Part shown: one piece after another, positions 8,022 to 14,365 of the stretch
How positions within the stretch are numbered: position 1 is the stretch's first letter
Layout: the number at the start of each line of letters is the position of its first letter
DNA from: a virus
Taxonomy: Duplodnaviria; Heunggongvirae; Uroviricota; Caudoviricetes
Length of the DNA stretch: 15,851 nt
IMG/VR virus record: IMGVR_UViG_2684622669_000012
Span: 1-15,851 of that record
Direction: 5' to 3' (one strand)
Program-made: the position numbers and the translations under genes
Notes under the pieces: generated by a model
What the model saw: only the letters and a program-made list of their open reading frames with translations
Databases searched by the model: none
Told to the model about the DNA's origin: nothing

Positions 8022-8634
8022 AGGTGCACTATAATTCCACCCGTTCTGGTTTTCAATAGCTACATTCAACATTTTCTCTACCTTTCATCACCTGAGTGAA
8101 CTTTGTTGATGCGGTGCCTGGTGCCTCCAGGTGACGTTAACCAGTTAACAATTAACGCCGGATGACTCACCCATAACACTCATGTTTTTAACTGTTCCGC
8201 GTGCGCTTAGCCGCATTCACCGCATCACAAAATTCACTTTAAAAAGGGCGGCAGAGCAGTCACGGAGTAAAACTGATACCGCCAAACGCCACCAGAAAAT
8301 TGATAACAGAGGGCGTTGTAGCGGGGTTGTCACTTAAGCGTATGGTCAACCTGACAACCCGGTGTCCTCAACGGGGAAGGAATAACCCAGCCATACTTAC
8401 CGCCGCGCCATTTCGCGGAGTGCCACAACCGGAAGCGCACGGTCGAATTAAATTTAACGACACCGTACAGAGAGACCAATTTCGCCGTGCGCTTTCGCGT
8501 TATGCCCTGGCTTTTCAGGGATATATCCTTTCAGTAAACTGTCAGTACCGGATTCTTATCCGTGTCCGGCGCACGACCACACGTGACAGCGTGTTGGTCT
8601 CCATTTTTAACCCAGAACCTCAATGGAGGATAAA

Positions 8635-8844
8635 ATGCCAAACAAAAAAAGAAATCCGCTTATTGAAAAAAAGATTGAATGCCTGGTAAATCAACTCAGG
8701 CAATCAGGGTTATTAAAAACTCATTCAGAGTTGAGGCTCACAGAATCAGCATTCGACGATAAATTAAATAATGTCCTTTATAATGGCATTATTGATTTTA
8801 ATCGTTCTGTTGGTCGCCGCGGCCCTGCTGGTGTTTCCTTATAA
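8635..8844 (+). CDS. Hypothetical protein (69 aa), convergent with the 216-aa gene
   Basis: ATG at 8635 with GGAGG 5 nt upstream; Lys-rich N-terminus (MPNKKRNPLIEKKIE...); stop abuts the stop of the opposite-strand gene with no spacer. Occupies the position that sieB holds in Rac (memory). Confidence 0.45.
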   Translation: MPNKKRNPLIEKKIECLVNQLRQSGLLKTHSELRLTESAFDDKLNNVLYNGIIDFNRSVGRRGPAGVSL

Positions 8845-9495
8845 TTACCAGTCAATCCAGAGCGGACCGTGTTCAGCGTAAATATAACTGTACACATCCA
8901 GATTATATTTGTGGTCTGTTAAGAACAGGCCGCAAATATATGCCGAAGCTTCCAGGGCAGCGGCTCTGTTACTGAATAACCATGTAGCAACATTCCAGCG
9001 TTTTTCTGCATCCCAGTCTTTCTCAAGGCCTGATACCATGAAGAAACCGTTAGTGTTGCCATCAAATAATTCTGTTTCCAGATTTTTAAGCAATGCCTGA
9101 TGGACTCTTGCCAGGTATTCCGCCGGAATTTCGCCACGAATTCTGATGAGATTGTCATAAACAAACATGTTCCCCGCATATGGCGATTCTTCTTTCTTGT
9201 TTTTTAAACCAGCATCATGAGCAAACTGATCAATTTCTTCTTCCGTTGGTTTCGTATTGATGTTTTGCGCTGTCGTTTCTGCAATTTTATTTGCCACACT
9301 CTCTGAGTCGTGTTTATTTACAGACGCACAGAAATACAATCCGGTAAACGCATCGCGCACATTACGAGCCATATTATCAGTGTCTTTTTTCGTTACCGAT
9401 TCCAATGCAAGTTCGTTCAGACGATGACGAAGTGTGTGTGCTGCAATCTCCTGGATTGAAGTAGGTAAATCTTTAAATTCCATCGTCAACCTCAT
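8845..9495 (-). CDS. Hypothetical protein (216 aa) of unknown function; accessory (moron) candidate
   Basis: Long clean ORF; start ATG overlaps the TGA stop of the upstream 50-aa gene (TGATG); alternative start 4 codons in has a GAGG RBS. No motif I can assign; soluble, acidic, no obvious TM segment. Confidence 0.7.
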   Translation of the reverse strand: MRLTMEFKDLPTSIQEIAAHTLRHRLNELALESVTKKDTDNMARNVRDAFTGLYFCASVNKHDSESVANKIAETTAQNINTKPTEEEIDQFAHDAGLKNKKEESPYAGNMFVYDNLIRIRGEIPAEYLARVHQALLKNLETELFDGNTNGFFMVSGLEKDWDAEKRWNVATWLFSNRAAALEASAYICGLFLTDHKYNLDVYSYIYAEHGPLWIDW

Positions 9496-9647
9496 CAGTC
9501 AGAGTTTCTTGCTAACCAGCGATGCGCGCCAGCTTCGGTTTTAAACGTTTTACTTTTGGTATACGTCATCGCGGTGAACGTGCCGTCCTGGTTGGGAAAC
9601 ACGCCGTACACCAGAGATTCGTTGTTGCCAAGATCGATAGTATCCAT
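9495..9647 (-). CDS. YdaF/YdfA-like small phage protein (50 aa)
   Basis: Below the 60-aa ORF-track cutoff. ATG at 9647 with GAGG 5 nt upstream; product MDTIDLGNNESLVYGVFPNQDGTFTAMTYTKSKTFKTEAGAHRWLARNSD resembles the small proteins encoded just downstream of the repressor in Rac (ydaF) and Qin (ydfA), from memory. Confidence 0.65.
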   Translation of the reverse strand: MDTIDLGNNESLVYGVFPNQDGTFTAMTYTKSKTFKTEAGAHRWLARNSD

Positions 9648-9771
9648 GCTGACCTCATTTCCCCTTAACGCCGGGGGAGCGGAACTAAGACCTGTCGCAC
9701 CGTTGTGCTTTGATGGAATACATTGCTCTCTTTAGGTGAACAAAAGTCAACATGATGAATACGTAAAAAAC

Positions 9772-9794
9772 AAAAAAAACCGCCTTGTGGCGGT
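9772..9794 (-). terminator. Rho-independent terminator downstream of the repressor gene
   Basis: Minus strand reads ACCGCC-acaa-GGCGGT followed by 8 T; lies 22 bp past the repressor stop. Confidence 0.6.
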
Positions 9795-9815
9795 ATGATT
9801 CTGTAAAATAAAGAA

Positions 9816-10205
9816 TTATTTTTGTCGTGTTATTGGGTCGACGTATTCTGAGTAAAATTCAGTCAGTTTTTGGAGTCGCATTTGAAAAGCTGCCAGCATA
9901 TTTCTACGTTCTACAGGTGGCAGGTTTCTGTAAACATCAAGCAGGGCCTTCTCGTCATCATCAAGCGCCTCTCTATTTGTCTCTTCTTTCCCTGTCAGTA
10001 GCCAAGAAAGGGAAACGTTTGTGGCTTCTGCAATTTTGGCTGCGGAATCTTTACTGATTGTTCCTCTTTTTTTCCATGCGTTGACTGATGAACGACCTAC
10101 ACCAGCGATACGCGCTAAATCTGAACCACTTAAATGATGCTGTTGAGAGATCGTATCTAACCTTTCTGCTAGCGGGGTGTCGTATTGCTTTTTTCTCATG
10201 TCCAT
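9816..10205 (-). CDS. Prophage repressor, Cro/C1-type HTH (XRE family), short form without S24 peptidase domain
   Basis: 129 aa; HTH at LSGSDLARIAGVGRSSVNAWKKRG; divergent from the cro-like gene; far too short to include a LexA-like autocleavage domain. Confidence 0.8.
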   Translation of the reverse strand: MDMRKKQYDTPLAERLDTISQQHHLSGSDLARIAGVGRSSVNAWKKRGTISKDSAAKIAEATNVSLSWLLTGKEETNREALDDDEKALLDVYRNLPPVERRNMLAAFQMRLQKLTEFYSEYVDPITRQK

Positions 10206-10308
10206 TTGGCAATTATAACCGTTCAGTGAACACTAACAATTCCTCGAGGTGTTGACTTATGTTCGCTTTAAGTGAACAATTATTGTGGTTAGTTGAACTG
10301 GAGGTTGT
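10206..10308. promoter_or_regulatory. Divergent promoter/operator region (pRM-like leftward, pR-like rightward)
   Basis: Minus strand: TTGTTA - 16 nt - TATAAT ending 6 nt before the repressor ATG, implying a leaderless or near-leaderless mRNA. Plus strand: TTGACT - 17 nt - AACAAT upstream of the cro-like gene. Repeated AGTGAACA motifs at 10236-10248 and 10274-10286, including the palindrome GTTCAGTGAAC. Confidence 0.6.
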
Positions 10309-10584
10309 ATGACAGCATTGGACAAAGCAATAAAGATTGCTGGTGGTATTCGTCCGCTAGGGCGTGCAATAGGGGCTTGGCCATCTCAAATACACAAATG
10401 GGCAAATGAATACAATGGTCGAGTGCCGACGGGAGAACGGGTTCGTCAAATTTATATTGCAACTGGGGTTACTCCTCATGAATTGCGACCAGATTTATAC
10501 CCGAATCCAACTGACGGGTTGCCTGCTGGAGATAAGGCTAACACACCAAATACACCGGAGTTGATTCATGAAAATCAAGCATGA
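10309..10584 (+). CDS. ydaS: Cro-like HTH regulator, YdaS family
   Basis: 91 aa; GGAGG RBS; contains the YdaS-type motif (ERVRQIYIATGVTPHELRPDLYP) as recalled from Rac YdaS; first gene rightward of the operator region. Confidence 0.75.
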   Translation: MTALDKAIKIAGGIRPLGRAIGAWPSQIHKWANEYNGRVPTGERVRQIYIATGVTPHELRPDLYPNPTDGLPAGDKANTPNTPELIHENQA

Positions 10585-10993
10585 ACACATCCGCATGGCG
10601 ATGAATGCCTGGGCGCGTCCTGATGGCGAAAAAGTTCCAGCAGCTGGAATAACCCAGGCTTATTTTGAGTTGGGTATGACGTTTCCTGAACTGTATGACG
10701 AAAGCCATCCGGAAGCTCTGGCTCGCAATACTCAGAAAATTTTCCGCTGGGTGGAGAAAGATACTCCTGATGCGGTTAAAAAAATTCAGGCGCTGTTACC
10801 AGCGATCGAAAAGGCAATGCCACCTTTGCTGGTGGCCAGAATGCGCAGCCACAGTTCAGCTTATTTTCGGGAGCTGGTGGAGACGCGGGAGCGACTGGTG
10901 AGAGACGCTGATGATTTTGTCGCAGTGGCAATCGCCGGTTTCAATCAGATGAACCGTGGTGGCCCGGCAGGAAATGCTGTGGCAGTACATTGA
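10568..10993 (+). CDS. ydaT: YdaT-like protein (CII-position regulator/toxin family)
   Basis: 141 aa; starts MKIKHEHI as Rac YdaT does (memory); overlaps the ydaS-like gene by 17 nt. Confidence 0.75.
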   Translation: MKIKHEHIRMAMNAWARPDGEKVPAAGITQAYFELGMTFPELYDESHPEALARNTQKIFRWVEKDTPDAVKKIQALLPAIEKAMPPLLVARMRSHSSAYFRELVETRERLVRDADDFVAVAIAGFNQMNRGGPAGNAVAVH

Positions 10994-13998: not shown

Positions 13999-14209
13999 TT
14001 TCATATTGGCGAGGTAACGGGAGTTAAGTAGAATGGCTGCGGGTGCTTGAGGCTATCTGTCTCAGGCATGAACACCAAAGGCAGATAGAGAAAAGCCCCA
14101 GTTAACATTCGGCGTCCTGCAAGACGCTTAACATTAATCTGAGGCCCAATCTATGTCTCACAAATGTAGGTTAGCCTCTTACGTGCCGAAAGGCAAGGAG
14201 AAGCAGGCT

Positions 14210-14365
14210 ATGAAGCAGCAAAAGGCGATGTTAATCGCCCTGATCGTCATCTGTTTAACCGTCATAGTGACGGCACTGGTAACGAGGAAAGACCTCTGCG
14301 AGGTACGAATCCGAACCGGCCAGACGGAGGTCGCTGTCTTCACAGTTTACGAACCTGAGGAGTAA
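14210..14365 (+). CDS. hokD: Hok/Gef-family type I toxin (membrane peptide)
   Basis: MKQQKAMLIALIVICLTVIVTALVTRKDLCEVRIRTGQTEVAVFTVYEPEE: near-identical to HokD/RelF as I recall it (one A/V difference). AAGGAG RBS; the ORF-track entry adds an in-frame 19-codon upstream extension. Confidence 0.9.
   Translation: MKQQKAMLIALIVICLTVIVTALVTRKDLCEVRIRTGQTEVAVFTVYEPEE

Follow-up and report, generated by a model that had tools for sequence, protein, structure and literature searches.

A hairpin-rich noncoding segment of a lambdoid prophage corresponds to the dicF sRNA locus and its folded RNA flanks

What does a lambdoid prophage keep in the ~560 bp (8073-8634) that separate the ORF called rha from a convergent 69-aa gene and that hold no convincing gene of their own? 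A first-pass annotation of the window (the whole 15,851-nt stretch of viral DNA analyzed here) had judged a noncoding stretch this long to be unusual in such a region, and had proposed structured RNA(s), a nut-like antitermination region, or a recombination or packaging site, naming no strand; the strand that matters is the minus strand. Judging from its sequence, the segment is the known prophage gene for the sRNA DicF together with folded RNA flanks, all on the minus strand, and we put at roughly 88% the probability that it is the dicF region of a lambdoid Qin/Rac-type prophage, an untranslated part of a repressor-controlled early-left operon. The apparent annotation gap is thereby resolved, and the locus itself is already known, ordinary and common in E. 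coli. The premise that its length is unusual here was mistaken, and "structured RNA(s)" was the right call for a DicF gene with three conserved folded RNA segments around it. With DicF, which was among the first bacterial regulatory RNAs described, a prophage can stop its host from dividing and rewire sugar metabolism.

The RNA was found by an Rfam covariance scan of the window, in which the DicF family (RF00039) scored 76.4 bits at 8297..8246 on the minus strand (gathering score 48, E = 1e-15), with the model covered in full (positions 1-52 of 52). A second, more permissive scan of 7700-8900 repeated the DicF match and added a sub-threshold match to STnc100. The same conclusion is reached by alignment with the dicBF locus of the K-12 prophage Qin (RF00039; Faubladier, 1990). 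The two sRNAs are identical at 52 of 53 nucleotides, and window positions 8575..8097 (minus strand) are 89.8% identical, over 491 aligned positions, to the Qin ydfC-dicF-dicB interval; the K-12 partner stretch begins 60 nt past ydfC, stops 18 nt short of dicB and has dicF mid-way. The DUF1391 (ydfA) gene and its upstream flank also are homologous to Qin, where dicF likewise lies downstream of a CI/DicA-type repressor gene and a DUF1391 gene, such that the overall order of repressor, DUF1391 and, further on, dicF agrees between the two prophages. Since this homology begins only ~39 nt before the DUF1391 gene, the promoter region is unlike K-12 dicBp. The genes around the segment are:

CI-type repressor gene: 9816-10205, minus strand, upstream of the segment
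DUF1391 (ydfA-like) gene: 9495-9647, minus strand, upstream, from the Pfam scan
216-aa ORF: 8845-9495, minus strand, upstream, no Pfam family
69-aa ORF: GGAGG at 8625-8629 and ATG at 8635, plus strand, convergent, between the upstream genes and the dicF block
Flank outside the widely shared DicF block: 8576..8634, 5´ region of the 69-aa gene, holding an ACACG/CGTGT repeat
ORF with Phage_ASH and Phage_pRha domains: ATG at 8072, minus strand, next after the segment and followed by kil, racC and recE
isrK match: 8021..7945, inside the ORF called rha
C4 antisense RNA match: 7920..7833, inside the ORF called rha

As befits a DicF gene, the segment occupies an untranslated stretch of a repressor-controlled early-left operon of the dicBF type. 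Because the plus-strand 69-aa gene separates the upstream genes of this operon from the dicF block, transcription must cross that gene antisense; the dicF copy of this prophage is presumably expressed. In contrast to Qin, the window lacks dicB and ydfD and continues with the ASH/pRha ORF, which overlaps isrK and C4, and then with kil, racC and recE in a Rac-like arrangement; ydfB and ydfC are replaced by the 216-aa gene and the convergent 69-aa gene, and the window DicF bears an A10G change.

We also asked how widely the block is shared. Of 5426 complete E. coli genomes, 4729 had a megablast match to 8000-8700; the block is retained by 83-87% of the complete genomes of this species, with copy numbers reaching 9-10. 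For comparison with the window, 101 distinct flank haplotypes with the DicF core were collected from IMG/VR and species-representative genomes. The downstream edge of the block falls at 8097 in 88 of these 101 loci; past it most loci differ in sequence, with dicB following in K-12 and dicB-type loci. The upstream edge falls at 8515 (24 loci), 8575 (46 loci) or ~8637, and 8436-8107, far longer than the 53-nt DicF, is nearly invariant across the set. The particular junction to the ASH/Rha ORF seen in the window recurs in 399 of 5426 E. coli genomes. Since a species-level genome scan with the DicF core returned 8 loci only (from Escherichia, Shigella, Salmonella and likely contaminant MAGs), deep covariation is out of reach. 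The ACACG/CGTGT inverted repeat noted earlier exists, though two bases away from where it had been placed, at 8579-8583 / 8590-8594; it lies beyond the conserved block edge at 8575, and we attach no significance to it.

Folding of the whole segment was compared with dinucleotide shuffles for both strands. Each strand folds better than its shuffles, with an MFE of -204.4 kcal/mol for the minus strand (z -4.07, 0 of 100 shuffles as good) and -179.9 kcal/mol for the plus strand (z -3.43), a difference of 24 kcal/mol in favor of the minus strand. The 173-nt sub-segment 8245..8073 (minus strand) has an MFE of -63.4 kcal/mol (z -5.61, 0 of 200 shuffles). Several conserved G-U pairs of domain S would be A-C mismatches on the plus strand, which argues that the functional form is the minus-strand RNA. 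The RNA elements, all on the minus strand and listed in the direction of transcription, are:

Hairpin H0, long and imperfect: 8430..8497, with arms 8497-8478 (5´) and 8449-8430 (3´)
Domain U, a four-helix junction upstream of DicF: 8307..8435, with helices within 8429-8315 (~115 nt)
U helix P1, closing: 8429-8422 / 8322-8315, consensus fold of 22 diverse copies
U helix P2 (CCGCG/CGCGG): 8418-8414 / 8407-8403, consensus fold
U helix P3: 8402-8399 / 8363-8360, enclosing a variable hairpin, 8388-8386 / 8375-8373
U helix P4: 8358-8349 / 8339-8326, containing the 9-bp stem of the first-pass annotation
Candidate pseudoknot in U: GUAUGG 8396-8391 with CCAUAC 8345-8340
A/U-rich single-stranded linker, GCCCUCUGUUAUCAAU: 8299..8314, 5´ of DicF
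DicF sRNA, 53 nt: 8246..8298, A10G variant of the K-12 sequence
Intrinsic terminator of DicF: 8241..8283, from the Rfam structure line and the U-run
Domain S, 144 nt, STnc100/PasD-related: 8095..8238, directly 3´ of the DicF terminator
S closing helix, 19 pairs: 8238-8218 / 8116-8095
S hairpin Sa: 8214-8210 / 8204-8199
S stem Sb: 8198-8196 / 8162-8160, surrounding a hypervariable insert
S hairpin Sc, the GTTAAC repeats: 8159-8149 / 8143-8133
S hairpin Sd (CCUGG AGGCA CCAGG): 8131-8127 / 8121-8117

The mature sRNA differs little from its K-12 counterpart. Nucleotides 11-53 are the same as in K-12 and cover the ftsZ-pairing 3´ part, so the published ftsZ-pairing region (target-pairing regions described in PMC5069750) is intact; the DicF-ftsZ duplex energy of -37.7, against a shuffled-control mean of -34.0 (sd 4.3), is within the shuffle spread. 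The A10G variant was found in 3 of the 101 distinct haplotypes; as K-12 DicF pairs with xylR through the 5´ region affected by the change, the variant may act on a different set of targets. At the 3´ end, a stem (8283-8277 / 8253-8247) with an inner helix is followed by C8246 and five U residues (8245-8241), which together give the stem-loop and U-run of DicF, a terminator and Hfq-binding module; termination at the DicF terminator has been reported for K-12 (PMC5069750).

Upstream of DicF, the arms of H0 (20 nt, 80% complementary in an inverted-repeat search) form a stem in the MFE fold as well. H0 has 18 consensus pairs that are 98.3% paired across 35 distinct sequences; the changes seen among these are all one-sided (G-U), none being a compensatory double change. 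For U, 98.5% of cells are paired in the 22 diverse copies and 7 pairs are changed on both sides; 0 of 500 shuffles reach any of the measures, and slid controls are 31-54% paired. Because most of the double changes come from the phage P1 lineage, the support from covariation, although real, is shallow. The perfect 9-bp inverted repeat GGGTTGTCA/TGACAACCC, which is present exactly as first described (8324-8332 / 8352-8360, 19 nt between the arms), corresponds to P4 on the minus strand (8324..8360), and its 19-nt loop bears the pseudoknot partner CCAUAC. This loop is invariant across the set save for pairing-preserving changes: pseudoknot pair 42-100 is U-A in 20 sequences, C-G in phage P1 and U-G in one. 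The hairpin enclosed by P3 is wholly different in sequence between lineages, with its pairing always kept. An extension of the pseudoknot by UAA/UUA pairing was discarded, as the UAA is invariant and changes in the 3´ partner are instead matched within that partner itself, and so was a tRNA-like reading of the four-helix fold, for which ARAGORN and the Rfam tRNA model call nothing. The U region (8298-8520) gave no match to any Rfam family even at E ≤ 10, and a full-text literature search with U-domain sequence strings found no paper; our own covariance model of U (R1) scores 153.7 bits on the window copy.

Copies of U also are found without canonical DicF, in phages Ayreon and 2H10, in Stx2c phages and in P1, where a different single-stranded stretch and terminator follow in each case. 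Chimeric variants also occur, in which the DicF 5´ half precedes a different terminator or the DicF hairpin is preceded by a different 5´ half. In P1, the annotated "dicF-like region" (NC_005856; Lobocka, 2004) behind the C1-controlled ban promoter holds a copy of U that is 78.6% identical and shows compensatory changes in the pseudoknot and in helices P1 and P4; a short unpaired stretch and an intrinsic terminator come next. As in the window, the setting is a repressor-controlled early operon, but the P1 3´ unit (seed and terminator) is unrelated to DicF in sequence, and an STnc100-like domain is not adjacent, lying 1.2 kb further on, before tciA. When the U model was run against 868 kb of loci fetched by the STnc100 motif, U appeared solely in loci also holding DicF; U and S therefore are separable modules.

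Domain S matches STnc100 (RF02076) at 8234..8102 (minus strand) with 40.5 bits, below the gathering score of 47 (E = 4.6e-7), over positions 22-154 of the 206-position model. The core fold of that family (the GGUGAAU junction, the UCACCNGGAGGCACCNGGCACC hairpin and the closing helix) is present in S, and a 5´ hairpin, a variable middle and a penultimate hairpin also are shared with STnc100 and PasD. A recent preprint reports that STnc100 is related to PasD of EPEC/EHEC prophages and does not mention DicF (Zhu, Shabalina and Storz, 2026, 10.64898/2026.05.13.724894). In contrast to STnc100, S lacks the promoter-proximal part and a terminator of its own: the match stops at model position 154 and is followed by a Shine-Dalgarno-like sequence and the ATG at 8072, with no counterpart of the 3´ terminator (positions 155-206) that makes STnc100 a stand-alone transcription unit. 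Whereas STnc100 stands alone, S is embedded in an operon, where it comes straight after the DicF terminator and leaves ~20 nt to the next start codon, and it is presumably the 5´ leader of the ORF starting at 8072.

Among 40 distinct copies of S, the 43 consensus pairs are 99.4% paired (31-44% in slid controls), and compensatory double changes affect five pairs, of which the GTTAAC hairpin has two and the closing helix one, so that structure-preserving covariation was found among relatives in S as in U. The GTTAAC sites at 8136-8141 and 8144-8149 and a third TTAAC at 8152-8156, all reported previously, are read directly from the sequence. The CCTGG/CCAGG repeat is likewise real, at 8117-8121 / 8127-8131, one base off from the 8116-8130 given earlier. 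The central insert of the window S is 9 nt shorter than the commonest type. Elsewhere, terminator-less S comes next before dicB (K-12), kil (Shigella phage 75/02 Stx and phiSTEC1589) and tciA/terB (P1 and P7). The homologous copies that precede dicB, kil and tciA reach 30.8-43 bits with the STnc100 model, with the next start codon ~20-45 nt past the closing helix in the copies read. The UCACCNGGAGGCACCNGGCACC signature occurs in >120 viral contigs, often two or three times in each, and its canonical copies are bona fide STnc100 RNAs (66-165 bits) that stand alone, have their own terminators and often are in tandem.

How such an arrangement might be used is suggested by K-12, in which DicF is cut from the polycistronic dicBF RNA, with RNase III making the 5´ end of a 190-nt form and RNase E making the 5´ end of the 53-nt DicF (Ragunathan, 2023; PMC10448788). 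The K-12 3´ end arises by termination, giving 53 nt, or by RNase III acting on read-through RNA, giving 72 nt (Balasubramanian, 2016; PMC5069750). Cleavage sites, enzymes and targets were transferred from K-12 to the window by alignment, with positions extrapolated from RNA lengths, and they are given here as predictions. Counting 190 nt back from the DicF 3´ end leads to the boundary between cgaccgtgcg and Cttccgg in K-12, the first base of the latter being window C8435, in the H0 3´ arm. Counting 72 nt forward from 8298 leads to the boundary between 8227 and 8226, 10-11 bp into the S closing helix. By this transfer, the two longest helices, H0 and the S closing helix, coincide with both K-12 RNase III-dependent ends, and Qin has the same helices at these ends and the same terminator. 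By analogy with K-12, H0 is a probable RNase III substrate that would make the 5´ end of the 190-nt precursor, predicted at ~C8435; U would form the body of this precursor, and S is probably an RNase III site too. The RNase E cut, whose position was taken from the K-12 53-nt DicF annotation and the alignment, is expected between 8299 and 8298, at the 3´ edge of the linker.

In the proposed pathway, transcription of a polycistronic RNA would begin close to the gene for the CI-like repressor, ahead of the DUF1391 (ydfA-like) gene. RNase III would cut the hairpin at 8497-8430 to leave an intermediate of ~190 nt, consisting of folded U and DicF, and RNase E would then cut the A/U-rich linker just before 8298 to give the mature 5´ end. 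The 53-nt 3´ end would come from the intrinsic terminator with its U-run at 8245-8241, and RNA reading through it could be cut by RNase III in the S closing helix near 8227, yielding the 72-nt form. Mature DicF with Hfq would pair with ftsZ and other mRNAs and block cell division. S would act as a structured leader of the following gene, which is dicB in Qin and kil or tciA/terB elsewhere; here, it would lead into the ORF at ATG 8072, which carries the isrK-C4-Rha module.

Since antitermination had been proposed for the segment, we compared it with the known elements of lambdoid phages. Lambda nutL consists of boxA and boxB and acts with N, and the HK022 putL and putR sites lie just downstream of PL and PR. 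With nutL and the put sites the window shares an untranslated structured RNA in a lambdoid early-left operon, upstream of terminators, but it lacks boxA, boxB and any sequence similarity to put, and its fold differs. No boxA was found at ≤1 mismatch on the minus strand of 8073-9800; the window as a whole has a single 1-mismatch match, at 9726 on the opposite strand, against a chance expectation of 3.4. Neither of the two upstream ORFs scanned against Pfam (DUF1391 and 216-aa) is a recognizable N gene, and a lambda-type nut site was rejected on these grounds as far as the sequence can tell, leaving the nut-like proposal unsupported. That no recognizable N gene is among these two ORFs would suit a variant of the idea in which U, like HK022 put, antiterminates in cis, as an RNA that travels with RNA polymerase and takes it past the DicF terminator and later ones, allowing the early genes downstream to be expressed. 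In the contexts seen, U always lies <80 nt upstream of an intrinsic terminator beyond which the operon continues, to dicB in Qin, to further early-left genes in Ayreon, and to tRNAs, tciABC and ban behind the C1-controlled ban promoter in P1, and K-12 yields both dicF-terminated and read-through transcripts. Nevertheless, put is two stem-loops of ~70 nt whereas U is a four-helix junction with a pseudoknot, and blastn with short words against the HK022 putL/putR region (22000-32000) gave only chance matches of 10-12 nt. A leaky terminator would account for read-through without a special element, and because DicF-like units with S occur without U in Shigella phage 75/02 Stx, phiSTEC1589 and a Salmonella locus, read-through there needs no U. 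We consider put-like antitermination by U unlikely.

Other readings make the segment a source of protein, a DNA site or a relic. All ORFs of ≥20 aa were listed and their integrity was checked in the 101 distinct relatives: ORFs exist mechanically, but none is conserved, and the segment is ORF-free in the sense that matters. Only 3 of 101 relatives have the 49-aa ORF (8479..8330, minus strand) intact, and 45 have indels that shift its frame; the 129-aa plus-strand ORF is interrupted in most. A short ORF within S (8216..8145) keeps its first 10 codons in all variants, as a leader peptide might, but this constant start falls where the RNA fold has hairpin Sa and its GGUGAAU junction, and the ORF ends at 11 to >44 aa with its frame changing between variants. 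The 51-aa ORF at 8182..8337 (plus strand) is open in 86 of 101 relatives, which carries no weight because the DNA underneath is near-invariant and there is no Shine-Dalgarno sequence. PGAP marks a pseudogene "DicB, incomplete" in relatives (~8088-8186 equivalent), but the 62-aa K-12 DicB has no match in the window by tblastn. Since only the in-frame extension upstream of dicB matches, the partial DicB is an annotation artefact, a translated S leader, and a DicB remnant was dismissed. With protein coding rejected for these ORFs, one or more small proteins (from the 49-aa ORF, the leader ORF or a truncated DicB) are very unlikely to be what the segment provides. That the repeats act as DNA, in recombination, packaging or protein binding, we regard as scarcely credible. 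Two HpaI-type palindromes with several inverted repeats within 60 bp would be candidate sites, and recombination between phage modules recurs at the block edge, 8097. However, the GTTAAC repeats form Sc, in which compensatory changes run from G-C to U-A or A-U and from U-A to G-C and which includes G-U pairs that are A-C mismatches on the other strand; pairs kept by changes that work only in the minus-strand RNA leave the recombination or packaging proposal unsupported. Bona fide STnc100 RNAs also have the same architecture with a different Sc sequence, and the early-left operon lies far from any cos/pac or att site, the two tRNA genes of the window, possible att sites, being at 1.9-3.1 kb. 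Rather improbable, finally, is an intact-looking but silent relic, a DicF copy never made in meaningful amounts whose conservation reflects a recent spread of prophage modules. For this speak the repression of dicBp in K-12 under laboratory conditions, the convergent gene in the path of transcription, and the 90-100% identity among copies, because of which purifying selection is hard to tell from recent common descent. Against it, K-12 DicF accumulates in stationary phase, variation respects the helices while the loop insert and P3 hairpin vary freely, and the block is retained, with as many as 9-10 copies, in the large majority of complete E. coli genomes.

With the segment read as a dicF locus, U and S, neither of which Rfam records at this position, are a modest side result. 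We tentatively raise the possibility that DicF is one cargo of a modular "sRNA cassette" made up of U and an STnc100/PasD-class domain. On this speculative reading, one module would be U, which other phages have fused to ~10 different seed-plus-terminator units, and the other would be the STnc100/PasD-class domain, which stands directly before the cell-division inhibitor genes dicB, kil and tciA. The partners seen with U include the P1 ban-operon leader, Ayreon, Stx2c phages and several DicF variants with swapped 5´ or 3´ halves. If U directs sRNA maturation or read-through, and if stand-alone STnc100 and PasD derive from or mimic a leader of this kind that RNase III processes, a function and a common logic would emerge for two orphan RNA classes. 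Apart from this, the sharing of U with other sRNA units and the position of S at a probable RNase III site provide hypotheses on the maturation and diversification of phage sRNAs. Two annotation oddities also are explained by the locus: the "partial DicB" pseudogene in relatives is a translated RNA leader, and the "Rha" ORF begins right past that leader and covers two further RNA genes.

The 283-aa 'rha' ORF (7221..8072, minus strand), which follows directly on the STnc100/PasD-related domain downstream of DicF, coincides over its first ~100 codons (stretch 7833-8072) with two above-threshold RNA genes. The following features lie in this 5´ stretch of the ORF:

8056..8028, minus strand, promoter-like TTGAAA-17-TATAGT
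8034..7982, minus strand, c4-a1b1 target, weak match
8021..7945, minus strand, isrK RNA gene, above-threshold match (67.2 bits)
7967..7950, minus strand, terminator-like hairpin
7920..7833, minus strand, C4 antisense RNA gene, above-threshold match (80.6 bits)

Residues 14-109 of the ORF match the Pfam family Phage_ASH, the same stretch as the isrK and C4 matches, and Phage_pRha does not begin until residue 120. Codon 100 of the ORF is an ATG (7775) with GGAGG 8 nt upstream. Either 7833-8072 is RNA and protein at once, or the 'rha' ORF is over-extended. The arrangement is reminiscent of c4-icd-ant of P1 and isrK-anrP of Gifsy-1.

The dicF block is of Qin type and is combined with an immunity region of Rac type. 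Upstream of the block, on the other side of DicF, lie the following features:

8635-8844, plus strand, 69-aa ORF with a strong GGAGG at 8625-8629
9779-9794, minus strand, terminator-like hairpin with a T8 run, directly 3´ of the CI-type repressor gene
10212-10239, minus strand, near-consensus promoter TTGTTA-16-TATAAT, upstream of the CI-type repressor gene
10309-10993, plus strand, YdaS- and YdaT-family genes, divergent, on the other side of this promoter

The 69-aa ORF, for which we found no Pfam family and only hypothetical annotation among relatives, has the 216-aa gene on one side and the dicF block on the other, and is convergent to the repressor-controlled early-left operon, whose transcription must run antisense across it.

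The NCBI pipeline labels two comparison loci (L001 3089-3187 and L002 3006-3089, corresponding approximately to window 8088-8186) as 'cell division inhibition protein DicB, incomplete'. We rejected a DicB fragment here, as the label corresponds to the RNA leader upstream of dicB translated in frame (VLWV..ALIVNWLTSPGGTRH..); the window carries no real DicB. DicF itself has G at position 10 (window 8289) versus A in K-12, a minority variant (3/101 distinct haplotypes) that falls in the 5´ region, which in K-12 pairs with xylR.

In other viral contigs (L243, L244, L247, L251, L257, L269, L271, L280, L133 and L131), ~10 different units are fused downstream of the conserved domain that precedes DicF. 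Each unit consists of a single-stranded stretch and a terminator hairpin; some are chimeras with the DicF 5´ half only or the DicF 3´ hairpin only. These fusions look like a common scaffold with diversifying seeds. Bona fide STnc100 genes also occur in viral contigs in tandem, with arrays of 2-4 copies inside ~1 kb and middle hairpins that vary from copy to copy:

L145, 2265-3380, STnc100 array at most ~1 kb from tRNA genes
L167, 811-1488, STnc100 array at most ~1 kb from tRNA genes
L194, 4349-5513 and 8357-8555, STnc100 array adjoining isrI

Elsewhere in the window are the following RNA features:

14041-14215, plus strand, sok antitoxin RNA, above-threshold match (116.9 bits)
1899-1974, minus strand, tRNA-Asn(GTT) gene
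2966-3055, plus strand, tRNA-Ser(CGA) gene

The sok match implies that the prophage carries a putative hok/sok-type toxin-antitoxin locus. The two tRNA genes, toward the left part of the window, could be phage-borne or could be markers of the integration site.
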